Assembly (NCBI GenBank): GCA_044236985.1
Contig: JBIIFW010000001.1
Location: 1 to 32,858 of the forward strand
DNA from: Bradymonadia bacterium
Lineage (GTDB): Bacteria > Myxococcota_A > Bradymonadia > REDH01
Direction of reading: 5' to 3'
Length of the DNA stretch: 32,858 nucleotides
The notes beneath the pieces are model-generated. The model made no database searches and was not told the origin of the DNA. It saw only the letters and a list, made by a program, of their open reading frames with translations. Below are positions 5,352 through 27,230 of the stretch, piece by piece. How positions within the stretch are numbered: position 1 is the first letter of the stretch; each line of letters begins with the position of its first letter. The position numbers and the translations under genes are program-made.

Positions 5352-5487
5352 GTTTCCGGAGTCCGAGAGAGAGCTGACTGCTACCGAGTGGCTGCGGTGG
5401 TTCGCAAGCCAAATGCCGTGGCGCGGGTGGAGTTTGACTGCTGCCCCTGCTAGCCGAGCAGAGAGATCCTGTCTTCTGGAGGCGCCG

Positions 5488-6252: not shown

Positions 6253-6260
6253 GTCGGGCG

Positions 6261-7010
6261 ATGCTCGAGGCGCTGACCCTCGTTGTGCCATGTTACAACG
6301 AGGCGAGTCGCTTCGATGCGGGGCGATTCGGCGAGGCACTCGGGCGCTTTCCGGGGCTGCAGCTCCTGCTGGTGAACGACGGCAGCAGCGACGCGACGGA
6401 GGCGGTCATTTCAGCCTTTGCCGCGACCTCGGCAGGGCGGGTCCGGACGCTGTCGCTGGCAGAGAACTGCGGGAAGGCCGAGGCGGTTCGGGTGGGGATG
6501 GGGGCCGCATTGGATGGCGGGGCTGGCTGGGTGGGGTTCTGGGATGCCGACCTCGCCACACCGCTCGCGGCGCTGGAGGAGTTTTCGGCGGCGGCCGCGC
6601 GCCACGGCGAGGCGCGGGCCTTGATTGGGTCGCGCGTACGGCTGCTGGGCAGGGAGATCGACCGCAATCCGGTTCGCCATGTGCTGGGTCGGATGTTCGC
6701 GACGGCGGCCTCTGTGACGCTCGATCTGCCTGTGTACGACACGCAGTGCGGTGCGAAGATTTTCCTGGCCGATGAGACGCTTCGGAGCGCGCTGCAGGAG
6801 CCCTTCGCGAGCCGTTGGATCTTCGATGTGGAGCTGCTCCAGCGCCTCGACAGGGCCTGGCTGCGTACGACCGGGCGGCGTGCGACAGCCTATCTTGTCG
6901 AGGTCCCCCTCCTGGCCTGGCAGGATGTGAAGGGGAGCAGCGTGCGCGGTCGTGACTTCTTGCGGGCCGGTGCGGAGCTTGCGGTTATCCGGAGTCGCCG
7001 GGCCCGCTAG
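6261..7010 (+). CDS. GT2 polyprenyl-phosphate hexosyltransferase (ALG5/Dpm1/GtrB-like)
   Basis: 'LTLVVPCYNE', 'LLLVNDGSSDAT', 'FWDADLATP' (DxD) and 'YDTQCGAKIF' match the ALG5/Dpm1 'TQCGFK' block. At about 250 aa it has the typical size. TTG 6249 is an alternative start that overlaps the upstream stop. Confidence 0.85.
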   Translation: MLEALTLVVPCYNEASRFDAGRFGEALGRFPGLQLLLVNDGSSDATEAVISAFAATSAGRVRTLSLAENCGKAEAVRVGMGAALDGGAGWVGFWDADLATPLAALEEFSAAAARHGEARALIGSRVRLLGREIDRNPVRHVLGRMFATAASVTLDLPVYDTQCGAKIFLADETLRSALQEPFASRWIFDVELLQRLDRAWLRTTGRRATAYLVEVPLLAWQDVKGSSVRGRDFLRAGAELAVIRSRRAR

Positions 7011-9034: not shown

Positions 9035-9208
9035 GGGACCGGCGCGGCGAGACGAGTGACGAGCCGACAGTGCGGCTGCGGTGCAGGGTATCGTAGCGGA
9101 ATGGCGACGAAAGGGATAAGAGAAAGCGAAGGCTCGGCGTTGGCGAAAGCGCATCCGATTGCCCGTCGCCCTACCCGGGATCTGCTCTTGTACGCCTTCC
9201 GATTCGAC

Positions 9209-11038: not shown

Positions 11039-12258
11039 AGATCGCGGTTCTCTCTCGGAGCGATGCCTCCGGCGGCGGCGCTGGCCGCGTTGCGGATGAG
11101 TTGTCGGCAGGCCTCCGCACAGCAGGCCACCGCGTGCTTCGCCTCTACCGCAAAGGCCAACCGGCGGCCGACCGCGACACGCTGGTCTTGCACGCGCTGC
11201 GCGGCGAACAGGCGTTGCGTCAGACGCTCGGCGTTGACCTTTCGTCGGCTCCGCTGCTGCTCGTGCTCGCCCGACACGGCATCGAGATGGTCCATTTTCA
11301 CGACCATCACATGGCCTTTGGCCTCCGCACCGCACAGGCGATTGCGGGGCGGCTTCCGACCTGTTTCACCTTCCACGACTACACGGGTTTCACCGGCGGC
11401 TGCCTCTACCCGGGTGCCTGTTCGCGGTACGATCGAGGCTGCGGCTCCTGCCCGGAGACCGGGCGCGGCGCGCAGCCCGCAAGGCTCGACCGTTCGGCCG
11501 CGACCTGGGACGCGAACCGGCGGTTCGGGGCGACCGCGGGTGTGGTCGGGATCTCGCCATCCTCTCACTTCGCAGAGCTCGCCGCGCGCGGGGCCTGGTT
11601 TGGTCGAGAGATCGAGGTCATCCCGAACGGGGTCGACACTGCGACCTTCTCGCCATCGGTGCGGGCGGCCTCGCGGGTTGCCGAAGGTGTCGGTGCGTCG
11701 GAGCGGGTTCTGCTCTTCGTTGCGGCGCAACTCGGCGACCCCCGCAAGGGGCTCATCGACCTCTGCAAGGCGCTTGCGCCCCGGTTTGCGCAGGACCCGA
11801 CGCTGACGCTCTGGCTCGTCGGCGGCGAGGACCAGTTGCCTCCCGACCTCGCGCTCCTTGGCGGCAGAGCGCGGCGCTTCGGTCGAATCGGGAGCAAGGC
11901 ACGGCTGGCGGAGCTCTACGCAGCAGCCGACCTGTTCCTGCTGCCGAGCCATGAGGACAACCTTCCCTGCACGGCGGTGGAGGCGCTCTCCTGCGGCACG
12001 CCGGTGATTGGGCGTCCCGTGGGCGGAATCGGGGAGATTTTCGAGCATGGCCGCAGCGGCCTGCTCGCGCGTGACCGCACGGTCGAGGCGCTCGGCTGGG
12101 CCATCGACCAGGGCCTCACGCAGCTCACCGGGCAGGATGGTCGGAGGGCAGCGCGGCGCTTTGCCGAACAGCGCTTCGGCATGGAGACCTTTGTGGCGCG
12201 CCATGAGGCGGCCTACGACCGGGCCGTCACAGCGTGGGCCGGTAAGGCGGAGCGATGA
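11035..12258 (+). CDS. Glycosyltransferase family 4 (GT-B, Glycos_transf_1 type)
   Basis: ATG 11035 overlaps the upstream TGA (ATGA). 'MKIAVLSRSDASGGGAGRVA' is a GT4-type N-terminus. 'LFLLPSHEDNLPCTAVEALSCGTPVIGRPVGGIGEI' is the EX7E retaining-GT signature. Confidence 0.85.
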   Translation: MKIAVLSRSDASGGGAGRVADELSAGLRTAGHRVLRLYRKGQPAADRDTLVLHALRGEQALRQTLGVDLSSAPLLLVLARHGIEMVHFHDHHMAFGLRTAQAIAGRLPTCFTFHDYTGFTGGCLYPGACSRYDRGCGSCPETGRGAQPARLDRSAATWDANRRFGATAGVVGISPSSHFAELAARGAWFGREIEVIPNGVDTATFSPSVRAASRVAEGVGASERVLLFVAAQLGDPRKGLIDLCKALAPRFAQDPTLTLWLVGGEDQLPPDLALLGGRARRFGRIGSKARLAELYAAADLFLLPSHEDNLPCTAVEALSCGTPVIGRPVGGIGEIFEHGRSGLLARDRTVEALGWAIDQGLTQLTGQDGRRAARRFAEQRFGMETFVARHEAAYDRAVTAWAGKAER

Positions 12259-14117
12259 GCGAGCAGAGGCAGGAGAGAGCCTCGCCGGAACGCGGGCCTT
12301 CCATCGCTTTCGGCATCTTCGCAGGGCTGCTGCTGCTCGCGCGGCTGCTGCGTCTCTCTGCAGAAGGGCTCTCGGCGAGCTTCGATTCGGCCATCTACAT
12401 CCGGAACCTCTGGGGCATCGCGCAGGGCGACTGGCATAACCCGCTGGTCAACGACCACATCTTCGGCGTTCATGGAAACTGGGTCCTCCTGCTTCTGGCA
12501 CCGCTCGTACGATTCGCCGACCCGGCATTGCTGCTGACGCTGTCGCAGGGCTTGGCGCTAGGCGCGACGGCGGGGCTCCTGCACTACGGGTTCTTGGAGG
12601 CGCTGGGCCAGCGCGCGAGCCGCGGTCGACGGTTGGCGGCGGCGACGCTGCTCAGCGCAGGGCTGCTGGCGGGGCCGGTGGCGATCAACCCATTTCTCTT
12701 CGACCTTCGCCCCGACATGCTGGGGCTCCCGCTGCTGCTCGCTGGTCTTTTGCGTGCACGGCGACAGGGCTTCGATGGTGCAGCACTGGCCTGGATGGGC
12801 GCCGCACTTTTTGTGCGCGAGGACTTTGGGATGGTGATCATCGGTGCGATGGCGACCGCGCCGTTCGGCCGCTCCTTGCTCTCGAACTGGCAGCGGCGCT
12901 GCGGCGTGATCGCGGCTGCGCTGGCCTTCTTCGCAATCTACTGGTTCGGCGTGCGGAGCTGGGTGGCACCGCAGAGCGTCGCCCGCGCAAGCAGCATCGC
13001 GTCGCAGATGCTGGACAACGCGAGCCCGCTGCCGGTGTCGCAGGTCATCGCCTACAAGGCTGAGATTTTGGCGGCGGTGCTGCTGGGCGGCGGACTGCTG
13101 CCGCTCTTCGGTTGGCGGTGGCTGGGCGTTGCAATGCCGGGCCTCGCCTTTCTGCTGATCCAGTCGCGCATGCAGGCCGACCTTCTCGACTTTCACTATG
13201 CGATTTTCGCCCTGCCCGGCTTGGCAATCGCCTCGGTGGATGGCCTCGAACGACTCGTCGCTAGGCCACGTCACGCACCGCTGCTGCTGATCTCAGCGGT
13301 CTGCATGGGCACACTGTTCGCGACGTCGAGCGCGCTTCCGGGTGGCGGGCGCCACTTCGCCTCGCGCGAGGCGGCGCGGAACGACGACGGCTCCCTACGC
13401 CTCACCGCGGATGGGCTGCCGCTCTACGAGGCGATGAATGCGATGGTGGCCGCGCTTCCCGCCAGCGATGGCGTTGCAGTGCCCTTCGCACTCTCTGCGG
13501 GCGCAGCCTCCCGCTCCACCATCGTGACGACGGAGCAGGTGAAACAGTGGGTCTCAAAGGGGGAGAAGTTCCCGCCGGACCTCCACTGGGTGGTGCTTTT
13601 CGGCAAGGACTTCGAGGGGCTCGGGAGCCGGCTGGTGAGCGAGCACGGCCTTCATTTGGTGACAACCGTGGATCAATCGCTCGCGGTGCTCACCGATCGC
13701 CCTGTACCGACAAACTGGGAGGCCTTCAGCCTTGCTGCGACGGGGTGCGCGCCCTGGGCGGAGTGGCCGACTGCAGGCGTTCGCCTCTGCACACCCGATG
13801 CTCGGCGTCCCGGCTGGTGGGTGGAGCGGACTGCGGGCGCAACGCTGCCTGCGCCAACCGACCTCTTCCTCGAGCCCGCCGGCGCCGCGCCCGTTCTCTT
13901 TCGAGGGGTGTCGGGGCTTGTTGCACTTTCGTCACTTCCCGTCGGTCGCGCGCTTCCTGTTCGCGGCGCGGACGGTTCGGGTGTATCGTTCAACGCAGCG
14001 GTGCTCGCAGCGCAAGGTCGTGCGATCTCCTGCCGCTCCACGGACGGCTCGAGCGGCCTTCGCTGCAACCTCCGCTCCATGCCTCCGACTCCGCCCGCTC
14101 AAGGCAAAGACCCATGA
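12255..14117 (+). CDS. Polytopic membrane protein, DUF2079-like (GT-C-like candidate)
   Basis: ATG 12255 overlaps the upstream TGA (ATGA). 'SFDSAIYIRNLWGIAQGDWHNPL...FGVHGNWVLLLLAPL' resembles the DUF2079 N-terminal signature; this is from memory and needs an HMM check. Many TM helices precede a ~200-aa soluble C-terminus. Confidence 0.65.
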   Translation: MSEQRQERASPERGPSIAFGIFAGLLLLARLLRLSAEGLSASFDSAIYIRNLWGIAQGDWHNPLVNDHIFGVHGNWVLLLLAPLVRFADPALLLTLSQGLALGATAGLLHYGFLEALGQRASRGRRLAAATLLSAGLLAGPVAINPFLFDLRPDMLGLPLLLAGLLRARRQGFDGAALAWMGAALFVREDFGMVIIGAMATAPFGRSLLSNWQRRCGVIAAALAFFAIYWFGVRSWVAPQSVARASSIASQMLDNASPLPVSQVIAYKAEILAAVLLGGGLLPLFGWRWLGVAMPGLAFLLIQSRMQADLLDFHYAIFALPGLAIASVDGLERLVARPRHAPLLLISAVCMGTLFATSSALPGGGRHFASREAARNDDGSLRLTADGLPLYEAMNAMVAALPASDGVAVPFALSAGAASRSTIVTTEQVKQWVSKGEKFPPDLHWVVLFGKDFEGLGSRLVSEHGLHLVTTVDQSLAVLTDRPVPTNWEAFSLAATGCAPWAEWPTAGVRLCTPDARRPGWWVERTAGATLPAPTDLFLEPAGAAPVLFRGVSGLVALSSLPVGRALPVRGADGSGVSFNAAVLAAQGRAISCRSTDGSSGLRCNLRSMPPTPPAQGKDP

Positions 14118-15565
14118 AGTTCAAGACGGCCCGAAGCCTCTTCCGCCCAGCTCTCCTCGCCGGCCTTGCACTTGGCACCTTCGCCACGCCCGCCGCCGTC
14201 TCCTCACACGGCATCATGGGTCACATGCATGTCACGGGGTGGGCCATCGAGAACCTGCCGCCAGGCGAGCTTCGCGACATGCTCACCGACCCCGAGGTGA
14301 TGAACGCTGCCATCTTCGGCTCCGCCTACACCGACTCCGGCTACTGGCCGAGGGGTTCTGTGGAGTCGCAGGCCCGAGCCTATGGCGAGCACACGCACTG
14401 GGAGCCATTCATTGAGGACTTCGTCACCTGGATCCGGGTGAACGATCCGCCTCCGTGGACCTCCCTCGAGTCCAAGAAGCGGTTCGCATTCATGCTGGGC
14501 TGCGCATCGCACGGCCTTCAGGACGAGATCTTCGACTCCATCTTCCTCGACCAGGTGGACTACCACGACAACGGCAACCAGGACATCGCCGACCCGGCGA
14601 CAGACGGCTTCCTCGCCATTGATGGCCACCTTCGGTTCATGCCGACGGAGTACTATCCGAAGGACACCGTTCTTGAGCTCTATCAGACGCTCAATATGGG
14701 CATCTCGGAAGAGACCGTCCGCTACGGCCTCGACGCAATGGAGACGCTCTATGTGAACCCCCGCAGCGGCTACGCAGTGGCGGCCGGCTTCGGGCGTCAG
14801 CACGGTGCCAAGCTCGGTTGGACGCGGGCCCACTACTTCGACGCCGATGTGCCGGGCAGCATCCGCAGCGAGATCCTTCCGACCATGCGCTACATGATCG
14901 CGCTCTGGGAGCGGGTGCAGGGGCAAAACTCCGCCGACAACCCGGTGCTCTTTCAGTACCCCGACGACGGCCGGTTCCTGCGCTCGCTCGACCCCGCAGA
15001 CCCCGCCTCATGGGTGACCATCGTCACTGCGGCGGCGGCGAAGGCCGACTTTGTAATGCCCGACTGGAAGCTCGACGACGGCACGCCGATTGCCTTCTCC
15101 AAGCACGGCACACACTGGGGTGGTCCCGATCAGTTTGCCCGTGTCATGCAGCTGCGCCCGTTGGAGCAGCTCCCCGCCGACCGCGCGTCCACCGTCAGCT
15201 GGAACTTCAACGGGCCGCTTATCAACGGTGAGGTCTCGACGGCCTCGGTGGTATTGCCCGTCCGGACCACCTGCATCGAAGGCAGCGGCGCATGCCCCAT
15301 CGGCTGCGATGCTCGCACCGGGTTCACATCACCCGAAGAGGTCGGAGCGGCTCTCGGCCGTCCGGCCTCCTGCCTTCCCGAACAAGAGGGCAGCGGCAGC
15401 GGCGCTGAAGTTGCTCCGACCGAGAGCAAGAAGGGCGACGGCGGCGGATGCCAAACGAGCAAGCCTGCCTCTGCCTGGGGCCTGCTCTGGTTCGCTGCGG
15501 CGCTGCTCGGGCTGCGGTCAGCGCGGTCGGCGCGCCGCCACCAGGATGCTGCCGCCAAAGGCTAA
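14114..15565 (+). CDS. Secreted zinc-dependent phospholipase C-like protein with MYXO-CTERM-like sorting tail
   Basis: ATG 14114 overlaps the upstream TGA (ATGA). The signal peptide is 'MKFKTARSLFRPALLAGLALGTFATPAAVSS'. His-rich metal motifs are 'HGIMGHMHVTGW', 'EHTHWEPF' and 'CASHGLQDEIFD'. The C-terminal 'GGGCQTSKPASAWGLLWFAAALLGLRSARSARRH' reads as Cys, then a hydrophobic helix, then an Arg cluster. Confidence 0.6.
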   Translation: MKFKTARSLFRPALLAGLALGTFATPAAVSSHGIMGHMHVTGWAIENLPPGELRDMLTDPEVMNAAIFGSAYTDSGYWPRGSVESQARAYGEHTHWEPFIEDFVTWIRVNDPPPWTSLESKKRFAFMLGCASHGLQDEIFDSIFLDQVDYHDNGNQDIADPATDGFLAIDGHLRFMPTEYYPKDTVLELYQTLNMGISEETVRYGLDAMETLYVNPRSGYAVAAGFGRQHGAKLGWTRAHYFDADVPGSIRSEILPTMRYMIALWERVQGQNSADNPVLFQYPDDGRFLRSLDPADPASWVTIVTAAAAKADFVMPDWKLDDGTPIAFSKHGTHWGGPDQFARVMQLRPLEQLPADRASTVSWNFNGPLINGEVSTASVVLPVRTTCIEGSGACPIGCDARTGFTSPEEVGAALGRPASCLPEQEGSGSGAEVAPTESKKGDGGGCQTSKPASAWGLLWFAAALLGLRSARSARRHQDAAAKG

Positions 15566-16363
15566 CTCTTCGCCTCGCGCGACAGCATCAACCTCGCCTG
15601 AGAGCAGGGAGCGGATGGCGCGATCGGCCAGCCCGGGTTTGTGGTCGCGCGCAACCGACGCTGCCGTCGGAGCGGCTGGCGCAATGCCGGCGCGGTAGGG
15701 GAGCGCGCGCAAGAGGCCGATGAGCGGCGGCAGCGGCCGGAAGAAATGGCCGAGGTAGCACCTCTCGAAGCCTGCCTCTTCGAGCAGTCGCGACATCGAG
15801 GCTCCTGTGTAGCGGCGGTGGTGACCTGCGGCGGCATCTTCGTGTGACCAGAGCAGCGGGTAGGCGGGTACCGAGATGAAGAGGAGCCCGCCCGGGCGGA
15901 GCGCACGACGGGTCTCTCGCAAGAACCCAACATCGTCGGCGATGTGCTCGACCACATCGAACATCCCCGCGCCGGCAAGGCATCCGTCGCGAAACTGGCA
16001 GCTGTCGAGGGTACCCTCGACGACGGAGGAGAGTCCGCGAGCATGGGCGCGGGCGGCGCCCTGCGGCCCGGGTTCCACGAGCAGCGTGGGGATCCCCAGG
16101 GCCTCGACGGCCAGTGCCACGAAGCCATTTCCTCCGCCGATATCGGCGAAGGGCGCGCCACCAAGTTCCTCGCGGTAACGAGCAATCAGCGCCGTGAGGA
16201 CCGCGTTGCGGTGGTTGAACCAGAACGAGTTCTCCTCCACAGCGAAGCAGGAAGCGTTTCCATCCGCGGGATAGGAGATCGCCTCCGCCTCCGGCGGGCG
16301 CCAGATACCATCGACACCGCGTTCGATGGACGATGCAAACTGTGTGAGGTCGAGGCTCTTCAC
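15518..16363 (-). CDS. Class I SAM-dependent methyltransferase (paralog of 5488-6252)
   Basis: 'FADIGGGNGF' is motif I. 'MFDVVEHI' and 'LLFISVPAYPLLWSHEDAAAGHHRRY' align block by block with the 5488-6252 product. The 3' end overlaps the convergent gene by 48 nt. Confidence 0.8.
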   Translation of the reverse strand: MKSLDLTQFASSIERGVDGIWRPPEAEAISYPADGNASCFAVEENSFWFNHRNAVLTALIARYREELGGAPFADIGGGNGFVALAVEALGIPTLLVEPGPQGAARAHARGLSSVVEGTLDSCQFRDGCLAGAGMFDVVEHIADDVGFLRETRRALRPGGLLFISVPAYPLLWSHEDAAAGHHRRYTGASMSRLLEEAGFERCYLGHFFRPLPPLIGLLRALPYRAGIAPAAPTAASVARDHKPGLADRAIRSLLSGEVDAVARGEELAFGGSILVAARRPR

Positions 16364-16463
16364 CCAATCGGGGTACCATCCGGCTCATGCGAAGGCAACC
16401 TGCGCGGCGGGCCCTCGGTCGCTTGGCTTGCACCTGCATTCCGAAGGCAGTAGCCCTGCGCTT

Positions 16464-16622
16464 GATTTGGTTCTCTCCCTGTTCTGAGGGCGGGCCAAGC
16501 GGGAATCTGGTGAGACTCCAGAACTGACGCGCAGCGGTGTGAGCGATACCCCCTCACCACGACACTGGGACAACCGGGAAGTCGAGGGGGCCGAGAGCTC
16601 GAGTCCGAAGACCGGCCAGATC
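16464..16622 (+). promoter_or_regulatory. Cobalamin (B12) riboswitch aptamer
   Basis: The core 'AAGCGGGAATCTGGTGAGACTCCAGAACTGACGCGCAGCGGTGTGA' matches the conserved GGGAA..GGTG.AA..CC...C.G.C.CGCA.C.GT.A block. The B12 box is 'GAGTCCGAAGACCGGCC' at 16601-16617. A closing P1 helix pairs GATTTGG (16464-16470) with CCAGATC (16616-16622). The element lies directly upstream of a TonB-dependent receptor. Confidence 0.85.
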
Positions 16623-16684
16623 CTCCGTGAAAGCGGAGCGTACGACCTCCCTCGCGCTCGGGGACATCGCTTAAGGACAACGCG

Positions 16685-18781
16685 TTGCAGTTCCTCTTCG
16701 CCGATGCGCTTTGCGCAGCCGTTCTAAGCGTTGCCGTGGCATCGGCAGACCCGGAGGTCGTGCCGCCGATCGATGGCGTCGCGCAGGCCGAGGCCGAAGG
16801 TTCAGGCGAGCCGCAGCCGGCGCCGCAGCCCCGAACAGGCGCACTCCTGCCCAACACCCGCACCGACGGCGCCCCCTTCGCCTACCACCTTGGTTGGAGC
16901 GGTCAGGAGGCTGCTCGCAGCTCGCTCACCGCATCGCGCACGACCTTCTCGGACCTGGGAAGAGAGCTCGAGCGGATGCCTAGCCTCAGGCTGCGCGAGA
17001 CAGGCCTTCCCGGGTCGAGCAGTTTCATCTCCATCCGCGGCTCGGCGCCCGCGCAGGTCGCGGTGGTGCTCGATGGTCTTCCGCTTACCTCGGGCTTTGC
17101 AGCTGCCTTCGACTGGTCGCTGCTGCCGCCCGACACGGTGCAATCGGCCCGTGTCTACCGCGAAGCCGCACCGCTGGAGGCTGGCACGATGGGCGGCGGT
17201 GGGCTCATCGAGCTCACGGCGGGCGATACCGAGGCCGAGGGCCTCTGGGCGGCCGCGAGTGCCGGCGCCTGGGGCACACAGCGGCTGTCAGGGGGCGTCA
17301 GCCTGCGAACCGCAGATCACTGGGTGGGGCTCTCTGCCTCTCACCGCGCCACCGACGGCGACTACCGCTTCTTCAACAACGGCGGGACCCCCTCAAACGA
17401 GGCCGACGACGGGTATGGGCACCGCACGAACAACCAGCGATCGCAGTGGGCCACCCTCGGCGCCTGGCGCTGGTTCGGCGACCACCAGACCATCGCCCTC
17501 ACCGCGCTTGCGACCGGCCTCGAACAGCAGATCCCCGGCTACGAACAGGCGCCGAACCAGGCGCTTGGCCAGCGACACGACCGGCTCCTCGGCGCGCTCC
17601 GGCACGAGTGGCGCTACGATGCCTTCAGCCTGCAGACGAGCCTCGGTGGAGACGCCGTGACCCTGGAGCTCGACGACCCGCTCGGCGAGCGCGCTGCCTT
17701 TGGAGGAGAGAGCGATGCGCAGGACCGGAGGGTGGTCGCGGTGCTCCAACCCACGCTCAAACTCCCGGCGGCGCTACGGCTCTCCACGCAGGCGGAGTTC
17801 ACCGGAGAGTGGCTTGACGGGGGCAGCGGAGGCGCCACCGAGCGCATCGCGCGCAGGCTCAGCCGTGCCGTGGGCGCCGAGCTCAGTGGCGACCTCTTCG
17901 GCGGCCGTTGGCTGCTCCTCCATCGGTTAACGGACAGTCGAGACAGCGCCGGTGGAGAAGATGACAGTTCATCGCTGGCGTCGAGCGCGGTGATGGTGCG
18001 TCTGCCGCTGGTCCGGCTTCCGAGTTTCACACTCACAGCCCGCTGGAACGCTGCGGCGGCGGAGCGACTCCCGACCTTTCTGGAGCGGTTTGGCGGGACC
18101 GACAATGTGGTGGCGAACCCCGCACTGCGCCCGGAATCGCGTATCGGAAGCGACAGCAGTCTCGAGGTGGAAACCCACCTCGCACACACGGCCATCGATG
18201 CGGTCTGGAGCAGCTTCCTTCGCAGCACCGATGATCTGATCGTGATGCTGCCCAACAGCCAGCAGGCGACGCGGGCCGAGAACATCGGAGAGACGGTCGC
18301 GCTCGGCCACGAGTTGAGCCTGCGGCTGCGCTGGAGCAGCGGCACGGAGGTCGCCTTCGCAGGAGCCTACTCCGACGCGGTCGATGCGACGCAGGACAGC
18401 GTCCGGCGCGGCAAGCAGATCCCCCTGCACCCGTCTTGGACCGGCGCCGGCGAGGTTTCGCAGTTGGTCGAAACACCGGCAGGAGAGGTGACGATCGCGG
18501 TGCCGTGGCGCGCTGCCTCCACCTTCTTTGTGGACGGGGCCAACCTCTCCGCACGGCCGGCCGTCACAGAGTTTGGTGCTCGCGTCGCCTTCGCTCCCAA
18601 GGCGCTGCGCGGGCTGGCGGTGGAGGCGCGGGTGGAGAACATCACAGACCGCCTTTACGGCCAGGTGGAACAGCTCTCCGCCGGCGAGACCAGCGCCGTG
18701 CCGTGGGCCACTTCGGACTTTGTCGGGCACCCGCTTCCCGGCCGCGCGCTCTACCTCACCGTCAGCTACGCGTCGCCATGA
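16685..18781 (+). CDS. btuB: TonB-dependent outer-membrane receptor, probable cobalamin receptor (assigned by riboswitch context)
   Basis: TTG 16685 is the only in-frame start after stop 16628-16630, with AAGGA 7 nt upstream. The signal peptide is 'LFADALCAAVLSVAVASA'. Plug-domain blocks are 'ISIRGSAPAQVAVVLDGLPL'. The long beta-barrel region has alternating patterns. The btuB symbol rests only on the upstream B12 riboswitch. Confidence 0.8.
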   Translation: MQFLFADALCAAVLSVAVASADPEVVPPIDGVAQAEAEGSGEPQPAPQPRTGALLPNTRTDGAPFAYHLGWSGQEAARSSLTASRTTFSDLGRELERMPSLRLRETGLPGSSSFISIRGSAPAQVAVVLDGLPLTSGFAAAFDWSLLPPDTVQSARVYREAAPLEAGTMGGGGLIELTAGDTEAEGLWAAASAGAWGTQRLSGGVSLRTADHWVGLSASHRATDGDYRFFNNGGTPSNEADDGYGHRTNNQRSQWATLGAWRWFGDHQTIALTALATGLEQQIPGYEQAPNQALGQRHDRLLGALRHEWRYDAFSLQTSLGGDAVTLELDDPLGERAAFGGESDAQDRRVVAVLQPTLKLPAALRLSTQAEFTGEWLDGGSGGATERIARRLSRAVGAELSGDLFGGRWLLLHRLTDSRDSAGGEDDSSSLASSAVMVRLPLVRLPSFTLTARWNAAAAERLPTFLERFGGTDNVVANPALRPESRIGSDSSLEVETHLAHTAIDAVWSSFLRSTDDLIVMLPNSQQATRAENIGETVALGHELSLRLRWSSGTEVAFAGAYSDAVDATQDSVRRGKQIPLHPSWTGAGEVSQLVETPAGEVTIAVPWRAASTFFVDGANLSARPAVTEFGARVAFAPKALRGLAVEARVENITDRLYGQVEQLSAGETSAVPWATSDFVGHPLPGRALYLTVSYASP

Positions 18782-19983
18782 GCAGACCCATCGCAGCCCC
18801 ATTCTTGCTCGCCGCGGCGGTGCTCGCAATCGCCTTTTCGGCCGCCTGCCAGGTTGAGCTTGATGCGGCGGACGATGCAGGCTCCGACATCTCTGAAGGC
18901 TCTGGGAGCGGAGATGGGAGAGACCTCTGTGCCCTTGTGATGACGAGCGATTTTTCGCAGACCGCAGCGCTCCACACGGCGCGCTACCGTCGCGGCGAAC
19001 TGAGGCTTTCTGAGCCGCTGACCTCCGTCAGCACAGACGCCGTCCTGCGCGGAAACGACCGCATCGTAGCCGTCCTCAACCGATACCCCGCAGCCTACGT
19101 TCAGCGCATCGATCCCGCGGCGGGCTTCGCCACCGTTTGGGAGCGCGCCCTGCCGACGGGCAGCAATCCGTCGGACATCTGGATTGCCGACGATGGGCGC
19201 GCGGTCATTTCGCTCTACGGTGCAGGCCGGCCCGTCGCCGGCGGAGAGCTGATGGAGGTCAACCTGCTCGCAGCTTCGGAGGCGGACTGGATTGTGCGCC
19301 GCCGCTCGCTCGCCGCATGGTCAGAGGCCGATGGCAACCCGGATGCGTCGCAACTCATCCCCTTCGGCAGCCTGCTGATTGTCGTCCTGCAGCGCCTGGA
19401 CAACTACCCGAGCTGCAGCGAAGGAGGACGGAGCGCACTGCTCGCGCTCGACGCTGCAACACTCGAGCCGGTCGGCCACTTCGGCGGCAATGCCATGCTC
19501 ACCTTGGCGGGCTGCAACGCCTACTCCGCGGCGCTGCATGCAGACGGTCGGCTTATGGTGGCGCTCACAGGTCGCTACCAATGGAGCGGAGACCGGAGCA
19601 ACGATGGAGGAATCGAGGCAATCGACCTCGCGCAGGGAGTGTCGCTGGGCTGGCTGAGCCGCGAGGGAGAGCTGGCTGCCGGCGACATCACCGAGGTGGC
19701 TGCGGCCCGCGATGGCGCCACCCTGTGGGTGACCTCGTCGGCAGATTTTGACGGCTCGGTTTTCCGCGCTGAACGCGACGGCGCCACCTCTGGCCCGCTC
19801 TGGAGTGGCTCCAATCTCTTCGATATCGCCCCACAGGACGATGCGCTCTGGGTTGCCAACCGATCGAGCCTCTCGGCGGCGGTCGTGCTGCTGGATGGAG
19901 CAGGCGCAGAGCTCGGTCGTGCCATTCCTCCCGCACCGCCGATCGCCTTCCTGCCGCTTGAAGCGTCCGGCCTTTGCCCCTAG
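18778..19983 (+). CDS. Lipoprotein, repeat-rich (possible beta-propeller), function unknown
   Basis: ATG 18778 overlaps the receptor stop (ATGA). The lipobox is 'AFSAAC'. An acidic Ser/Gly linker follows, then recurring strand-like blocks: 'NDRIVAVLNRY', 'ADDGRAVISLYG', 'GSLLIVVLQRL', 'HADGRLMVALTG', 'ARDGATLWVTSS' and 'QDDALWVANRS'. Confidence 0.7.
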   Translation: MSRPIAAPFLLAAAVLAIAFSAACQVELDAADDAGSDISEGSGSGDGRDLCALVMTSDFSQTAALHTARYRRGELRLSEPLTSVSTDAVLRGNDRIVAVLNRYPAAYVQRIDPAAGFATVWERALPTGSNPSDIWIADDGRAVISLYGAGRPVAGGELMEVNLLAASEADWIVRRRSLAAWSEADGNPDASQLIPFGSLLIVVLQRLDNYPSCSEGGRSALLALDAATLEPVGHFGGNAMLTLAGCNAYSAALHADGRLMVALTGRYQWSGDRSNDGGIEAIDLAQGVSLGWLSREGELAAGDITEVAAARDGATLWVTSSADFDGSVFRAERDGATSGPLWSGSNLFDIAPQDDALWVANRSSLSAAVVLLDGAGAELGRAIPPAPPIAFLPLEASGLCP

Positions 19984-20015
19984 TCGGGCTCTGTCTCCCC
20001 GATGGCACACGCACG

Positions 20016-21401
20016 ATGCGCACGCTCCTCCTGATCGCCTTGCTCATGCCACTCTGTGGGGCCTGCTCCGGTAGCATGAGCAGCACCAACGCGGAGGGCT
20101 CTGCCGCGGGCAGCGGCTCCGGTTCGGGAGAGGGCTCCGGCCCCGACGAGGTCGCCGACGCAGCGCTGCCCGACACAGCGCCCGCTGCCGACACCGGCGA
20201 GCCCCTTGGCTCGGCCGATACCGACACAGACGCCGACACCGATGCAGAGGGCTCGGCGGAACCCGATACCGCACCCCCGTCCTGCGGGCTCGGCCGACGC
20301 CCGGTGACCTTCGGCGCCGACATCGTCGTCGGCATGATCGATGCTCCGCTGCCGCTACCACGGTGCGCCGCTGCCGCCTTCACGGGTCTGCTCTCGAGCG
20401 GCACCACCTGGCGGCTCGAGGTCGCAGACCTGCCCTCGGACGCGCGGCTCTTTGCCTACGGCCCGGCCTTCTTCGCGACGGCTGCAGCCGGCGATGCGCC
20501 GCCCCCGCTGGCCTCCACAGACTTCGCAGGGACGGGCTCCTCCTTGGAGCTCCTGGTGCGACCCGCCTTCTCCGGCGAGGTGGTCGTGGTGGTGGAGCGC
20601 GACGACCTCTACGCCGAGCAGACGGCACGGGTCACCGTCACCTGCGTGGAGGGCTGCGACCTCGCCGCAACAAGGTTCCCCGTGATGCTGGTGCACGGCT
20701 ACTTTGGGACCGACACCTACTTCAGCCTGCTCGACTACTTCCACGACGTGCCGGACCCGTTGCGTGCGGCAGGGTTCGAGGTCCGCACGCCGACAACCGA
20801 CGCCTTCAACTGGTCGGAGATTCGCGGCGAGCAGCTGGCAGAACAGCTCGACGCTCTCCTGGTTGAGACTGGTGCGCGCAAGGTCAACATGATCGCGCAC
20901 AGCCAGGGTGGCATGGACGCTCGTGTGGTGATTTCGGGCTTGGGGTATGCCGAGCGGGTCGCCTCGCTGACGACGATCGCGACGCCTCACCGCGGCACGC
21001 CGCTCGCCGTCGCAGACATTGCATCGGTGCAGGACTTCGGCCCGGACTACCTCGAGGGCACCTTCAATCCCGCCTACCCCGACAGCGCGGAGGTGAAGTA
21101 CTTCTCCTGGTCGGCACGCACCTGTGGCCTCCTCGAGTTCGGCTGTCAGCGAGAGCGAGATGGAGAGATTGCGGATGCGATTCTCGCCCTCTTCCAGACC
21201 TCGCTCACGCTCCGCGTAGGCGACAACGACGGCTTCGTCCCGACCGCATCGATGGTGTGGGGCGAGTTGCTCGGCACCCTCTCTGCCGACCACCTGGACG
21301 AGGTTGGACAGATTGCCGATGGCTCGCCGCGGAACGACCCCTTCGACCACCGGGCCTTCTACCTGAGCGAGCTGCGCCGGCTCTCTGTCGCAGGTTACTG
21401 A
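20016..21401 (+). CDS. Lipoprotein with C-terminal family-I-type lipase (alpha/beta hydrolase) domain
   Basis: I place the start at ATG 20016. The lipobox is 'LMPLCGAC', followed by an acidic low-complexity linker (GSGSGSGEGSGPDE, DTDTDADTDAEGS). 'FPVMLVHGYFG', the nucleophile elbow 'IAHSQGG', 'NDGFV' and 'ADHLDEVGQ' reproduce the Ser/Asp/His blocks of Pseudomonas/Burkholderia-type lipases. Confidence 0.8.
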   Translation: MRTLLLIALLMPLCGACSGSMSSTNAEGSAAGSGSGSGEGSGPDEVADAALPDTAPAADTGEPLGSADTDTDADTDAEGSAEPDTAPPSCGLGRRPVTFGADIVVGMIDAPLPLPRCAAAAFTGLLSSGTTWRLEVADLPSDARLFAYGPAFFATAAAGDAPPPLASTDFAGTGSSLELLVRPAFSGEVVVVVERDDLYAEQTARVTVTCVEGCDLAATRFPVMLVHGYFGTDTYFSLLDYFHDVPDPLRAAGFEVRTPTTDAFNWSEIRGEQLAEQLDALLVETGARKVNMIAHSQGGMDARVVISGLGYAERVASLTTIATPHRGTPLAVADIASVQDFGPDYLEGTFNPAYPDSAEVKYFSWSARTCGLLEFGCQRERDGEIADAILALFQTSLTLRVGDNDGFVPTASMVWGELLGTLSADHLDEVGQIADGSPRNDPFDHRAFYLSELRRLSVAGY

Positions 21402-21403
21402 GT

Positions 21404-21423
21404 CGCCTCGCGCACGTGAGGCG
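21404..21423 (+). terminator. GC-rich hairpin just after the lipase stop (possible terminator, no U-tract)
   Basis: CGCCTC (21404-21409) pairs with GAGGCG (21418-21423), and the helix can extend inward. It begins 3 nt after TGA 21399-21401. No T-run follows, so intrinsic termination is uncertain. Confidence 0.3.
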
Positions 21424-21590
21424 CAGGGGTGCGCAGAGGTGTCTGCACGCAGGCGCACACGCTCATGCGAGCGTGCATTATGCAGGCTCGCGTGCCCCCG
21501 CGTGAGGCCTCAACTCCGCTTGCAAACGGGGTTTTCTTGACTACCTATCCGCAACCCTAGCACCCTGCCCGCCCTTCTTCGGAGTGTCTG

Positions 21591-24317
21591 ATGTCCGTAG
21601 CCAAGACTGCCCTTGTGATTGTGGAGTCCCCAGCGAAAGCGCGCATCATCGGGACGATTCTCGGAAGCGGCTACCGCGTCGAAGCATCCCAGGGCCACAT
21701 CCGCGACATCCCCGAGCCGAAGGAGATGCCGGAGAAGTACAAGAAGACGGGTTACGCGAAGACCGGCGTCGACATCGAGACGATGGACGCGCTCTACCTC
21801 GTGCCTGCCGAAAAGAAGAAGAAGATGGCAGAGCTCAAGGCCGCGCTCAAAGATGCCTCGGAACTCTACATCGCGACAGACGAAGACCGCGAGGGAGAGG
21901 CCATCGGTTGGCACCTGTTCGACGAGCTCGAGCCCAAGGTTCCGGTCAAGCGAATGGTCTTCCACGAGATCACGAAGGAGGCCATCCGGAGCGCCCTCAC
22001 CAACACGCGCCAGCTCGACATGAAGCGGGTCAACGCGCAGGAGACGCGGCGCATCCTCGACCGGCTCGCCGGCTTCGAAGTCTCGCCGATCCTGTGGCGT
22101 AAGATTGGCAAGACCGCCAAGTCTGCCGGCCGCGTGCAGAGCGTTGCCGTTCGCCTCCTCGTCATGCGAGAGCGTGAGCGGCTCGACTTCAAGATGGCCT
22201 CCTACTGGGACCTCAAGGCGAAGCTCGAGCACGACAAGATCGGCTTCGATGCTGACATCCACTCCGTCGATGGCAAGCGGGTCGCGTCGGGCAAGGACTT
22301 CGACGAGAAGACGGGCCTGCTCTCGGCCAAGACCGCCCTGCTCCTCGATGGCACGGCGGCAAAGGCGCTCGCTGCGGCACTCAAGGGCGCACCCGTCGCC
22401 GTGAAGAGCGTCGAGCGGCGCGAGGCGAAGAACTCGCCCTACGCCCCCTTCACCACCAGCACGATGCAGCAGGAGGCCAACCGCAAGCTTGGCATGTCTG
22501 CGGCGAGCTCGATGTCGACCGCGCAGAAACTCTACGAGAACGGTCACATCACCTACATGCGTACCGACTCGACCAACCTCTCCGAGCAGGCGGTCGGTGC
22601 GATCCGTGCCACCATCGTGGACCGTTACGGCGACAAGTATCTCTCGCCCAAGCCCAAGCAGTTCGACACCAAGGCCAAGGGGGCCCAAGAGGCGCACGAG
22701 GCCATCAGGCCCGCTGGCACCCGGATGGCGACAGCCGAAGAGCTCCGGCTCACGGGCGACGAGGCACGCCTCTACGACCTCATCTGGAAGCGCGCTGTCG
22801 CCACGCAGATGGCCGATGCGATCATCGCCTTCACCAATGTGGAGCTCGCCATCCGGGCCTCCGACGGCCGCGAGGCCATCTTCAAGACCTCGGGCCGCGT
22901 CGTCCTCTTCCCCGGCTTCCTCCGCGCCTACGTGGAGGGGACCGACGACCCTGACGCAGCACTCGATGACCAGGACAAGCTCCTGCCTGAGATGAAGCAG
23001 GGCGACGCCCCGCTCAACCGCGAGATTCTGCCGCTCGGCCACGAGACGCGGCCTCCTGCACGCTTCACCGAGGCGACGCTGGTCAAGGCGCTCGAGAAGG
23101 ATGGCATCGGCCGTCCCTCGACCTATGCATCGATCATCAAGACCATCCTCGACCGCGGCTACAGCTTCATCAAGGCAAAGCAGCTCGTCCCCACCTTCAC
23201 CGCCTTCGCCGTCACAGCGCTGCTCGAGCGGACGATGAGCAAGATGGTCGACCTTGATTTCACTGCAAAGATGGAGGCCGAGCTCGACGACATCGGCGAC
23301 CGCGACGAGAAGACCGCCTACCTCAAGCGCTTCTACAACGAGCAGATCCTGGTCGGCATCGGCGAGGCCAGCAGTGTGGACCCCAAGGCAATCTGCACCA
23401 TCGAGCACGCCAAGTTCGGCCACTTCGCCATCCGCGTGGGCAAGTTTGGCCTCTACACCGAGGCGCCCGCAATTGATGACGAGACGCCCGTACGGGCCAG
23501 CCTGCCTCCCGATACTGCGCCGAGCGAGGTGACGGAGGAGTGGCTCAAGCAGCTCATCGACCGCAGCGCCGCCAGCACCTCCGCGCTGGGCATGCACCCC
23601 GACAGCGGGCTCCCGATCTACCTGCTCAACGGCCGCTTCGGCGCCTACGTGCAGCTCGGCGAGACAAGCGACGAGAAGGGCGCCGATAAGCCCAAGCGGG
23701 CCAGCCTGCCCAAGGGCAAGGTGCCCGAGAGCCTGACCTTCGAAGAGGCCGTCGAGCTGCTCCGGCTGCCGCGCGAGGTGGGAACCCACCCCGACACCGG
23801 CAAGCCGATCACCGCAGCCATTGGCCGCTTCGGCCCCTACGTGGAGCACGAGCGGGTCTTCGCCTCGCTCACCGACTCCGACGATGTGTTCACGGTTGGC
23901 CTCGCGCGTGCGCTCGAGCTCTTCGTTGCCAAGAGCGCCAAGGGCGGACGTGCCTCTGCCGCGCCCATCCGGGTGGTGGGCAACCACCCCACCGACAACA
24001 CAGAAATCGGCATCTTCGAGGGCAAGTATGGCCGTTATGTGAAGCATGGCGACATCAACGCCACGCTCCCCAAGGGTGGCAACTCCGACGACCTCACGCT
24101 GGACGAGGCGCTGGCACTGCTCGCAGAGAAGGCGTCACGCCCGCCCTCCGCGAAGCCAGGTCGCCGCGGAGCCACAGCGGCGAGGGCCACTGCCAAGCCG
24201 GCCGCAAAGGTTGCTGCCGCTAAGCCGGCCGCCAAGAAGGCACCCGCCAAGAAGGCCATTGCCGCAAAGGCACCCGCCAAGACCGCTGCAGCCAAGGCTC
24301 CCAAGGGCAAGGGCTGA
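21591..24317 (+). CDS. topA: DNA topoisomerase I
   Basis: 'ALVIVESPAKARIIG' and 'IATDEDREGEAIGWH' form the Toprim domain, and 'ITYMRTDS' carries the active-site Tyr. GGAG sits 6 nt upstream of ATG 21591. The C-terminus has 'GRFG(A/P)YV'-type repeats and a Lys/Ala/Pro tail. Confidence 0.97.
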   Translation: MSVAKTALVIVESPAKARIIGTILGSGYRVEASQGHIRDIPEPKEMPEKYKKTGYAKTGVDIETMDALYLVPAEKKKKMAELKAALKDASELYIATDEDREGEAIGWHLFDELEPKVPVKRMVFHEITKEAIRSALTNTRQLDMKRVNAQETRRILDRLAGFEVSPILWRKIGKTAKSAGRVQSVAVRLLVMRERERLDFKMASYWDLKAKLEHDKIGFDADIHSVDGKRVASGKDFDEKTGLLSAKTALLLDGTAAKALAAALKGAPVAVKSVERREAKNSPYAPFTTSTMQQEANRKLGMSAASSMSTAQKLYENGHITYMRTDSTNLSEQAVGAIRATIVDRYGDKYLSPKPKQFDTKAKGAQEAHEAIRPAGTRMATAEELRLTGDEARLYDLIWKRAVATQMADAIIAFTNVELAIRASDGREAIFKTSGRVVLFPGFLRAYVEGTDDPDAALDDQDKLLPEMKQGDAPLNREILPLGHETRPPARFTEATLVKALEKDGIGRPSTYASIIKTILDRGYSFIKAKQLVPTFTAFAVTALLERTMSKMVDLDFTAKMEAELDDIGDRDEKTAYLKRFYNEQILVGIGEASSVDPKAICTIEHAKFGHFAIRVGKFGLYTEAPAIDDETPVRASLPPDTAPSEVTEEWLKQLIDRSAASTSALGMHPDSGLPIYLLNGRFGAYVQLGETSDEKGADKPKRASLPKGKVPESLTFEEAVELLRLPREVGTHPDTGKPITAAIGRFGPYVEHERVFASLTDSDDVFTVGLARALELFVAKSAKGGRASAAPIRVVGNHPTDNTEIGIFEGKYGRYVKHGDINATLPKGGNSDDLTLDEALALLAEKASRPPSAKPGRRGATAARATAKPAAKVAAAKPAAKKAPAKKAIAAKAPAKTAAAKAPKGKG

Positions 24318-25007: not shown

Positions 25008-27230
25008 ATGCAGGACCAAATGCTGCGCGTAGCGGTCGCCGGCAACCCAAACGCGGGCAAGTCGACACTCTTCAACACCCTTACGCAAGGGCGCGAGAAG
25101 ACGGGTAACTACCCGGGCATCACCATCGAGGCCAAGCGGGGCGACTGGCACGTCCGCTCGCTCTTCCCACAGGCCCTCGGCCGCGTTGAGCTGCTCGACC
25201 TGCCGGGAGCCTACTCGCTGCATGCACACTCTCCGGAAGAGGCTGTCAGCTACCGGGTCCTCTCCGATGGCGCGCCGGGGAGCGAGGCACCGCAGGCGCT
25301 CATCGTCGTCGTCGACGTGATGAACCTCGAGCGCAACCTCTTCTACGCGCTCCAACTCCTCGAACTCGGTCGACCCACCGTTGTGGCGCTGAGCATGACC
25401 GACCGCCTCGCGGCGCAGGGCGGAAAGCTCCAGCTCGATCGGCTCGCGGAGGTGCTTGGCGTGCCCGTCGTAGATGCGCGTCGCGACGACCCCGCGACGC
25501 CCAAGCGGCTCGCCGACGCGCTGGTACAGGCACTGGCTGCGCCGGGCGCGGAGCGGCGCTGGATCTGGCCCGACGCGCAGGTCGAGGCCAGCTTCCGCGA
25601 TCTCGCCGACCGGCTCTCGGCGGCAACGGGGTCGGAGCGGCGCGGCGCCGATGGAACGCTGGGTTGGTGGCTCTCATCACAACTGGATGCAGGCGATATC
25701 GCGCCGGAGGCGGCGCCACTCCGCACCGAGCTCGAGGCGCTGGCGGAGCGCTACTTCGCGGGCGAGCCAAACGTGCCTGCGAAAGACCAGATGGCACGCG
25801 CAGCCATCGAGGCCCGCTACGCCTGGATTGACCGGAAGGTGGCGCCGCTGCTCGATCTGCCCGCAACGGCTGAGTCCCGCAGCGATCGCATCGACCGGGT
25901 GGTCACCCACCCCGTTGCCGGCCCGCTCCTCTTCCTTGCAACGATGGGGCTGCTCTTTCAGCTCATGTTCGTCGGCGCAGACCCGCTCATCTCGCGCATC
26001 GAAGGGGCCTTCGGAGCGCTCGGAGGATGGCTCTCCGAAGCGCTGCCGCCGGGGCCGCTGAACGACCTGCTCGTGAACGGCATCGTGGCCGGCGTCGGTT
26101 CGGTGGTCGTTTTTCTGCCCCAGATCGCCATCCTCTTTGCACTGCTCGCCTTCCTCGACGGCTGCGGATACTTGGCGCGCGCAGCCTTCCTGATGGACCG
26201 GGTGATGGCGCGGGTGGGGCTGCACGGGAAGTCGTTTGTGCCAATGCTCTCAAGCTTCGCCTGTGCCATTCCAGGAATCGCCTCGACGCGGACGATTGAG
26301 CGAGAGAACGACCGCTTCATCACCATTCTGGTCGCACCGCTCATGACCTGCAGCGCGCGGCTCCCCGTCTATGCGCTGCTGCTGGCTACCTTTTTCTCGG
26401 ATCGACCCGCCATCGGCGGCGTGATCAACCAGGCCGCGCTGGGGCTCTTCCTCCTCTACTTTCTAGGAACAGCTGGTGCGCTCGCGATGGCCTGGCTGCT
26501 GCGGAAGACGCTGCTTCCAGGCTCGCGCCCGCCCCTGATTCTGGAGCTGCCGCCCTACCGCCTCCCCCGTGCACGAGACGTCTGGTACGAGGTGCGCGAG
26601 CGCTGCATCGGTTTTGCCAAGGATGCGGGCACCGTCATCCTCGCCACCACCATCCTGCTCTGGGCCGCGATGACCTACCCCCGCTCACCGGAGGTCGAGG
26701 CCCGCTTCGACGCGCAGCTCTCCGCGCTCCATGAGGCTGCCCCCGCCGACGACGCTCCGATAGCGGGCGTGGAGGCCCACCGGGTTCAGGTGCTCCGCCT
26801 GCAGCAGGAGCGGCACCAAGCTGTTACCGAGCGAACGGTCGCGGGACGGGTCGGCAACTTCATCCTGCCCGTGCTCGAGCCGCTCGGCTTCAACGAGCAG
26901 ATCTCGATCGGCATCATCGCATCGCTCGCCGCGCGCGAGGTGCTCGTGAGCTCTCTCGGCGTCAGCTACGGCGTTGGCGACGACGAGGAGAGCCAGGGGC
27001 TGCGCATGGCGCTCCGCAACGACCCGCGGATGAACCGGGCCACCGCCATCTCGATTCTGGTCTGGTTCGTCTTCGCCTTTCAATGTTTCGCGACGGCCGG
27101 CGCCGTGCGACGCGAGACCCACTCCTGGAAGTGGCCCGCGCTTCTCGTCGGCTATCAGACGGTCCTTGCCTGGGTGGCAGCCTTTGTCGCCTATCGCGGC
27201 GCCCTCTGGCTCGGCCTCGGTGGCCCATGA
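25008..27230 (+). CDS. feoB: Ferrous iron transporter FeoB
   Basis: 'VAVAGNPNAGKSTLFNTLT' is the G1 P-loop and 'DLPGAYSL' is G3. The polytopic permease part contains 'VVFLPQIAILFALLAFLDGCGYLARAAFLMDRVM' and a second gate motif. GAGGAGG lies 4-10 nt upstream of ATG 25008. Confidence 0.95.
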   Translation: MQDQMLRVAVAGNPNAGKSTLFNTLTQGREKTGNYPGITIEAKRGDWHVRSLFPQALGRVELLDLPGAYSLHAHSPEEAVSYRVLSDGAPGSEAPQALIVVVDVMNLERNLFYALQLLELGRPTVVALSMTDRLAAQGGKLQLDRLAEVLGVPVVDARRDDPATPKRLADALVQALAAPGAERRWIWPDAQVEASFRDLADRLSAATGSERRGADGTLGWWLSSQLDAGDIAPEAAPLRTELEALAERYFAGEPNVPAKDQMARAAIEARYAWIDRKVAPLLDLPATAESRSDRIDRVVTHPVAGPLLFLATMGLLFQLMFVGADPLISRIEGAFGALGGWLSEALPPGPLNDLLVNGIVAGVGSVVVFLPQIAILFALLAFLDGCGYLARAAFLMDRVMARVGLHGKSFVPMLSSFACAIPGIASTRTIERENDRFITILVAPLMTCSARLPVYALLLATFFSDRPAIGGVINQAALGLFLLYFLGTAGALAMAWLLRKTLLPGSRPPLILELPPYRLPRARDVWYEVRERCIGFAKDAGTVILATTILLWAAMTYPRSPEVEARFDAQLSALHEAAPADDAPIAGVEAHRVQVLRLQQERHQAVTERTVAGRVGNFILPVLEPLGFNEQISIGIIASLAAREVLVSSLGVSYGVGDDEESQGLRMALRNDPRMNRATAISILVWFVFAFQCFATAGAVRRETHSWKWPALLVGYQTVLAWVAAFVAYRGALWLGLGGP

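Follow-up and report, generated by a model that had tools for sequence, protein, structure and literature searches.

Does the corrinoid uptake system of Bacteroides, in which the propeller lipoprotein BtuG serves the outer-membrane receptor BtuB, have a counterpart outside the Bacteroidota? This question is raised by a locus of a Bradymonadia bacterium (assembly GCA_044236985.1, contig JBIIFW010000001.1, forward strand; the whole stretch of 32,858 nt that was analyzed is called the window), in which a gene for a TonB-dependent receptor preceded by a cobalamin riboswitch is followed by the genes of two lipoproteins, of 401 and 461 residues (aa). The original prediction, made from the DNA letters, regarded the receptor and both lipoproteins as a possible novel corrinoid capture module without BtuFCD. 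Our analyses favor a two-gene unit, with a probability that we put at roughly two in three: a riboswitch-repressed pair of the BtuB-BtuG type for corrinoid uptake at the outer membrane, outside the Bacteroidota, composed of the receptor and the 401-aa lipoprotein, a predicted beta-propeller. That the pair has a corrinoid-related role is very probable. The interest of the locus lies in this receptor-propeller pair, not in a "triad" with the second lipoprotein, a lipase, or in the lack of BtuFCD. The pair, its leader and the lipase gene are laid out as follows.

16451..16634, + strand: cobalamin riboswitch aptamer (RF00174), found with cmscan
16635..16684, + strand: leader or expression platform; AAGGA (16673-16677) read from the sequence
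16685..18781, + strand: TonB-dependent receptor, 698 aa (open reading frame [ORF] and Plug domain)
18778..19983, + strand: propeller lipoprotein, 401 aa, core of the finding (ORF, AlphaFold2 [AF2] model, Foldseek, family profile)
20016..21401, + strand: lipase lipoprotein, 461 aa, ATG at 20016 (ORF; Abhydrolase_1, PGAP1 and Lipase_2 matches; Foldseek)

The riboswitch and the receptor

The aptamer upstream of the receptor gene matched RF00174 over its full length (model positions 1 to 189; 101.1 bits, E = 2e-24) and was the sole Rfam family at the gathering threshold in the window. It starts upstream of position 16685, where the original prediction had its region begin, and ends 50 bases before the receptor start. 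Close relatives have the same riboswitch in the corresponding place (L001 to L005, L007 and L008; homologous loci are numbered with the prefix L). A Shine-Dalgarno-like AAGGA stands 7 nt ahead of the TTG start codon. No intrinsic terminator was found in the leader by the terminator scan, and the predicted fold of the segment from 16600 to 16720 was no better than that of shuffled sequence (z = +1.68). The riboswitch may control the receptor at the level of translation. Two early claims were thus confirmed, that the receptor is under a B12 riboswitch and that its stop codon overlaps the start codon of the 401-aa lipoprotein gene as ATGA (18778-18781).

The receptor ORF, from the TTG at 16685 to 18781, encodes 698 residues with a Plug domain (PF07715, E = 4.8e-11); the PF00593 barrel family was found in homologues of the receptor and not in the receptor itself. 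We consider this protein to be a putative, divergent BtuB-like corrinoid transporter, the case for corrinoid specificity resting on the riboswitch. As in Escherichia coli, a cobalamin riboswitch occupies the leader of the receptor gene, but the E. coli system has no partner lipoprotein. The receptor of the window is also approximately 100 residues longer than E. coli BtuB, to which it is weakly similar. The E. coli btuB gene lies apart from btuCED and btuF, and in the window, too, the receptor gene has no btuFCD linked to it.

Relationship of the 401-residue lipoprotein to BtuG

The signal peptide of the 401-aa protein ends with ...AFSAAC24, followed by QVELDAADDAGSDISEGSGSGDG, and an acidic/Gly-Ser linker of approximately 25 residues comes after Cys24. 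Homologues have classical lipoboxes (LLGC, LTAC and LVGC). About seven DG-containing blocks were recognized in the chain, consistent with the six or more repeated strand-like blocks counted initially. Comparisons with Pfam (E <= 0.1) and NCBIfam yielded no match. An AF2 model based on an alignment of 12 close homologues had a mean predicted local distance difference test (pLDDT) score of 83.4 and a predicted template modeling (TM) score (pTM) of 0.82. In this model, 28 strands form seven four-stranded blades, and the N-terminal linker is disordered, which bears out the suspicion that the protein might be a propeller.

In a Foldseek search of the PDB with this model, the 13 best matches were all BtuG structures, with E values between 3e-11 and 2e-9 and target-normalized TM scores of 0.70 to 0.77. 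They are chains of BtuG1, BtuG2 or BtuG3, or BACUNI_02894, and include BT2095, BtuG2/BT1954 with cyano- or adenosylcobalamin, and two complexes of BtuB with BtuG (8BMX and 8P97). The next tier comprised XusB (3e-8), BtuK1 (1.6e-7) and unrelated propellers (approximately 1e-7 to 4e-7), such that BtuG surpassed the other fold matches by some 3 to 4 orders of magnitude in E value.

The relationship was also approached at the sequence level, using three family profiles, A2 (46 sequences), A3 (14 sequences) and A4 (132 sequences), against the 177,635 sequences of the PDB set. The A4 profile placed nine distinct BtuG sequences on top, with E values from 4.4e-6 to 6.1e-5; the alignments were in register over blades 2 to 4, and generic WD40 matches came next, at approximately 1e-3. 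In addition, two distant members of the family gave sub-threshold matches to PF16819/DUF5074, a propeller family that co-localizes with B12 loci (PMC13398666). As BtuG structures are the best fold matches and the A4 profile finds BtuG significantly, the 401-aa protein is most probably a remote BtuG homologue outside the curated family and not an independent invention, a conclusion drawn from the fold model and from profile-level sequence similarity. The original prediction had proposed an analogous, non-homologous corrinoid-capture protein. The capture part very probably holds, given the propeller and the riboswitch linkage, whereas the non-homologous part is contradicted by both the fold and the A4 profile. 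By its fold, its lipoprotein signal and its gene context, we place the protein in the superfamily of BtuG-type propeller lids, on a deep branch outside the Bacteroidota and beyond the reach of the curated family.

The likeness to the Bacteroides BtuG proteins (BtuG1, BT1954/BtuG2 and BT2095/BtuG3, which belong to PF16819/DUF5074 and have BtuB as a partner) extends beyond the seven blades. In both cases the propeller follows an N-terminal lipid-anchor Cys and a flexible linker, and its gene lies directly downstream of that of a riboswitch-controlled TonB-dependent receptor, often with btuFCD in the same operon, which for the window protein applies to its relatives. The pocket residues of BtuG2 include Trp194, Trp272 and Tyr316. 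The two groups differ in that the window protein is approximately 60 residues longer than the BtuG chains, shares only 12-14% identity with them, fails the PF16819 model, and belongs to a family of Myxococcota and other non-Bacteroidota phyla. XusB and BtuK1, two further propeller lipoproteins of Bacteroides with xenosiderophores or B12 as ligands, likewise serve TonB-dependent uptake and make up the second tier of fold matches, but their scores are weaker than those of BtuG by the margin given above. Furthermore, BtuK1 has an added PKD domain, and the XusB loci are devoted to the uptake of siderophores, not corrinoids.

Genomic company of the propeller family and its site of action

An exhaustive hidden Markov model (HMM) search over 1.84 billion representatives retrieved 566 propeller clusters (50% identity) at E <= 1e-3; with the threshold lowered to 1e-10, 167 clusters remained. 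Only this search revealed the wide family; a word-indexed protein search reached the close clade only, with 13 matches for the single sequence and 18 for the A2 profile. The close clade corresponds to a freshwater myxobacterial lineage, represented by metagenome-assembled genomes (MAGs) from lakes (83-92% identity). For the analysis of gene neighborhoods, we assembled 25 loci from GTDB representative genomes, obtained with an A3-based scan, and four metagenome loci, one of which is from Spirochaetes. The MAGs carried the labels Myxococcales, Bradymonadia, Binatia, Desulfurellales, Eisenbacteria, Latescibacterota, Planctomycetota and Gammaproteobacteria.

In the close clade, the riboswitch is present in all seven loci with upstream DNA. 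Among the distant homologues (26-46% identity), 17 loci have RF00174 upstream on the same strand (L009, L012, L014 [two copies], L015 to L021, L023 to L026, L028, L032 and L033). This count leaves out L010 and L013, where the match starts at the end of the contig, and L011 and L022, which begin inside conserved genes of the upstream operon. In nearly every locus, the gene of a TonB-dependent receptor overlaps that of the propeller or ends no more than approximately 50 nt from it. The proposed linkage of the lipoprotein to B12 riboswitches in other genomes was therefore found for the receptor-propeller pair, in 17 distant and 7 close loci.

The genes downstream of the propeller point in the same direction. 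L011 and L012 contain the genes of a BtuF-type binding protein, a FecCD permease and an ABC ATPase at this position, L014 that of a binding protein, L015 that of a FecCD permease, L028 those of BtuR and a binding protein, and L033 those of BtuR, CobU, CobT and CobS. We consequently rejected the notion that missing BtuFCD marks a novel pathway, and the "no BtuFCD" of the original prediction does not distinguish the family, since BtuF/C/D, BtuR or CobU/T/S follow the propeller gene in distant relatives.

A BtuBG-type mechanism would operate as follows. At low intracellular cobalamin, the riboswitch would let the leader be translated or transcribed. The receptor would be produced together with the propeller, the latter in fixed proportion, by termination and reinitiation at the ATGA overlap. 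Lipid-anchored at Cys24 through its acidic/Gly-Ser linker, the propeller would capture the corrinoid in its central cavity and hand it over to the receptor beneath, as BtuG does for BtuB in Bacteroides, for which a delivery model for TonB-dependent import has been put forward (PMC10404256). TonB-driven transport would come next, with inner-membrane BtuFCD presumably encoded elsewhere in the genome. Such a surface-lid mechanism is somewhat favored; the evidence for it is indirect and comes from homologues with T9SS-type C-terminal domains and from the close coupling of the receptor and propeller genes, which is conserved.

Where the propeller acts can be approached through the two forms of the family. 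Members of the first form are lipoproteins in which the Cys of the lipobox precedes an acidic or Gly-rich linker. The second form, of approximately 470 aa, begins with an ordinary type-I signal peptide and ends with a FlgD_ig domain (8 of the 10 sequences tested); one member also matches Por_Secre_tail, a sorting domain of type IX secretion, and one long form sits in a riboswitch-receptor-propeller locus (L032). FlgD_ig and Por_Secre_tail C-terminal domains are typical of surface cargo of the type IX secretion system (T9SS). Moreover, four Cys residues are conserved in the 14-sequence A3 alignment, C213 and C246 being invariant and C51 and C400 almost invariant, as would be expected of an extracytoplasmic protein. 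The polar residues D87, R102, N130, D185, N247, D276, E296 and D303 are also invariant in the family. The C-terminal domains and the conserved Cys residues, together with the fact that BtuG and XusB are surface proteins, favor a site of action beyond the outer membrane for the family, which is not proof for the myxobacterial lipoprotein.

The propeller might instead be an outer-membrane lipoprotein that faces the periplasm, where it would receive the corrinoid from the receptor or stabilize or assemble the latter, with no surface lid involved. Most characterized outer-membrane lipoproteins outside the Bacteroidota and Spirochaetota do face the periplasm, Myxococcota have no defined surface-export signal, and the operon of the window contains no BtuF. 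We nevertheless consider this arrangement unlikely. The propeller does not replace BtuF, as BtuF-like binding proteins coexist with it in L011, L012, L014 and L028. Many homologues have FlgD_ig or Por_Secre_tail in place of the lipobox, which argues for a location outside the cell, and the closest structures, BtuG and XusB, are surface lids.

It is still less probable that the propeller binds no corrinoid at all and is a B12-regulated enzyme or an NHL/YncE-like binder of another ligand, with for instance a B12-independent substitute function. The pairing with a TonB-dependent receptor and the repeated embedding among btuFCD, btuR and cobUTS form a signature of uptake and salvage, and both the fold search and the profile search single out BtuG. 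These observations outweigh the lack of a Pfam assignment, the label "YncE DNA-binding propeller" given by one source to a fragment, and the general fact that cobalamin riboswitches also control B12-independent isozymes.

Several observations weigh against the BtuBG-type pair. The identity to BtuG in the fold alignments is the low figure given above, and, taken by itself, the window protein matches neither BtuG nor PF16819 significantly by sequence. The A3 and A2 profiles retrieved nothing significant from the PDB sequences; as these narrower profiles miss BtuG, the sequence link between the window protein and BtuG is transitive, through the wide family. The residue at position -3 of the lipobox is an atypical Ser. 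BtuB models fit the receptor poorly, with scores of 36.7 bits (E = 1.8e-9) against TIGR01779 (TonB-B12; cut-off, 599.7) and 28.3 bits against NF007926 (cut-off, 836), and the PDB sequence matches of the receptor to E. coli BtuB (3.6e-4) and Bacteroides thetaiotaomicron BtuB3 (5.6e-4) are weak. Lastly, three loci lack a riboswitch although DNA upstream is available: L027 and L029, whose matches are weak and partial, and L030, from a spirochaete.

Our full-text searches of a literature collection found no report of BtuG-like proteins outside the Bacteroidota. By BLASTP, Wexler et al. described BtuG homologues as present "exclusively" in Bacteroidetes (PMC6143338), lipoprotein-capped TonB-dependent transporters have been considered seemingly exclusive to that phylum (PMC10404256), and a review from 2026 continues to present the system as one of Bacteroides (PMC13616437).

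We tentatively suggest, at slightly less than even odds, that lipoprotein-capped "pedal-bin" corrinoid transporters of the BtuBG type are an old and widespread design, shared by Myxococcota, Binatia, Spirochaetota, Eisenbacteria and Latescibacterota, among others, and that the BtuG superfamily serving them extends far beyond PF16819. If so, these phyla would export a propeller lipoprotein to the surface, some lineages instead secreting the propeller by means of T9SS-type C-terminal domains, and the route taken by lipoproteins to the surface outside the Bacteroidota becomes a question. BtuG has femtomolar affinity for B12 and gives gut Bacteroides a competitive edge. The hosts of the riboswitch-linked BtuG-like family are free-living Myxococcota, Binatia and other, mostly uncultured phyla, which would carry the BtuG strategy into lakes, soils and groundwater, habitats with little B12 and with trade in the vitamin among organisms. 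The family also offers hundreds of divergent sequences from which to learn what makes a propeller bind corrinoids, and annotators could name many "hypothetical proteins" beside B12 receptors.

The distant operons contain other conserved components. In MAGs of Binatia, delta-proteobacteria and Spirochaetes, riboswitch-controlled operons encode a second accessory family ahead of the receptor (L012:4444-5583, L015:4643-5638, L019:4879-5778, L022:1512-2444, L026:4874-6097, L030:5851-6918 and L011:3-605). These secreted proteins of approximately 300-400 aa share the N-terminal motif FADAVV..Y..G.N.GFG...LPG..LGPP and have no Pfam match and a weak NCBIfam match to LIC_13355-lipoprotein (3e-10). The family, which is absent from the window, may be another component of corrinoid uptake. 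In several distant operons, the first gene after the riboswitch, preceding those of the second accessory family and the receptor, codes for a secreted NHL/ScyE-like protein of approximately 460 aa (L012:2985-4373, L015:3206-4615, L017:3651-5012 and L022:3-1439); its membership in the BtuG-like family was rejected on the basis of the A4 profile. One Binatia operon, L014, has tandem cobalamin riboswitches at 4331-4514 and 5390-5556, the first preceding a TonB gene (4542-5336) and the second the receptor gene, a layout that resembles the two-riboswitch operon 1 of B. thetaiotaomicron (PMC13616437). L019 encodes two BtuG-like propeller paralogues in one riboswitch-controlled operon, one before (3603-4874) and one after (7758-9035) the receptor gene.

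The lipase gene and the surroundings of the pair

The 461-aa lipoprotein gene starts 32 nt after the end of the propeller gene, and the intact Ser/Asp/His blocks reported for its product were confirmed. Its C-terminal half matches Abhydrolase_1, PGAP1 and Lipase_2 and contains AHSQGG, NDGFV and HLDEVGQ; S296, D405 and H426 are invariant among 36 homologues. An AF2 model from 36 sequences (pLDDT, 81) comprises a disordered linker (residues 15-80), an eight-strand beta-sandwich (approximately 97-212) and an alpha/beta-hydrolase domain of the family-I lipase type (220-461). The best Foldseek matches were family I.1/I.2 lipases of Pseudomonas, Burkholderia and Proteus (E of approximately 1e-16, 24-27% identity). 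The lipase of the window shares with them the fold, the GHSQG-type nucleophile elbow and the invariant Ser/Asp/His residues, but it has in addition a lipoprotein signal, a long disordered linker and the N-terminal beta-sandwich, and no Lif foldase gene was seen near it. For the beta-sandwich, neither a family nor a fold match was obtained, the Foldseek search with the whole model being dominated by the lipase domain. This domain (window positions 20016-20650) is confidently modeled, and Cys90, Cys117, Cys210 and Cys214 are invariant in the 36 homologues.

The genes and signals that border the pair and the lipase gene are the following.

15518..16363, - strand: gene of a class-I methyltransferase, divergent, bounding the module on the left (Methyltransf_23 and Methyltransf_11 matches)
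21404..21423, + strand: short GC-rich inverted repeat, possible operon end (weak basis)
21591..24317, + strand: topA, unrelated housekeeping gene, right boundary of the module (Toprim, Topoisom_bac and Toprim_C_rpt matches)
25008-27230: feoB, after topA

No binding protein, permease or ATPase (BtuFCD) is encoded in the window, and topA is the next gene after the lipoproteins, followed by feoB, as first described for topA. The methyltransferase gene is kept at the left boundary only in the close clade. The inverted repeat, 2 nt past the lipase stop codon, has 9-nt arms (CGCCTCGCG / CGTGAGGCG) that are 89% complementary; it has no T-run and was not called in the terminator scan. The promoter and terminator scan of positions 16300-21700 was uninformative in this high-GC DNA.

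Using tblastn, we found the lipase gene behind the receptor-propeller pair only in the close clade of the window. Lipase homologues with the same two-domain architecture (34-60% identity) occur without receptor or propeller beside them: directly upstream of topA in L035, a few kilobases from feoAB in L036, and among unrelated genes in L034. Because homologues adjoin topA or feoAB without receptor or propeller, the lipase-topA-feoB neighborhood appears to be ancestral, and the riboswitch-receptor-propeller cassette therefore sits in front of older neighbors in one lineage. The lipase gene would be an ancestral neighbor of topA, the cassette having landed ahead of it; it would possibly be read through and have no role in corrinoid uptake. 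Given the 32-nt gap and the lack of a detectable terminator, read-through from the riboswitch promoter is plausible; functional membership in the module is not. We therefore regard the lipase as adjacent and possibly co-transcribed, and not as a conserved module member. The doubt that the original prediction voiced about the role of a lipase in a B12 context was borne out by these stand-alone homologues near topA and feoB. The receptor-lipoprotein-lipase triad, whose conservation it proposed to check, was found only in the clade of the window, and for the lipase as a second B12 surface lipoprotein we found no supporting evidence.

A three-part capture module, in which the lipase or its beta-sandwich would be a second B12-binding or -releasing surface protein, is thus very improbable: the short gap without a detectable terminator, the common strand of the three genes, the conservation of the arrangement in all close relatives and the unassigned beta-sandwich would suit it, but outside the close clade no lipase was detected beside the pair in any locus and homologues of the same architecture stand alone near topA or feoB, the catalytic triad is intact in an ordinary family-I lipase fold, and the lipase has no match to DUF4465 or another B12-related family in Pfam or NCBIfam.

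The left part of the window (1-14117) is occupied by a glycan/exopolysaccharide-type cluster unrelated to the B12 module. It encodes an NAD-dependent epimerase, three methyltransferases, GT2 and GT4 glycosyltransferases, a TPR protein and a DUF2079 membrane protein. Between this cluster and the module, positions 14192-15565 (+ strand) encode a secreted 457-aa protein with no Pfam or NCBIfam match. Its end, ...KKGDGGGCQTSKPASAWGLLWFAAALLGLRSARSARRH, resembles by eye a Gly-Cys sorting tail of the MYXO-CTERM type, consistent with a myxobacterial origin of the DNA.

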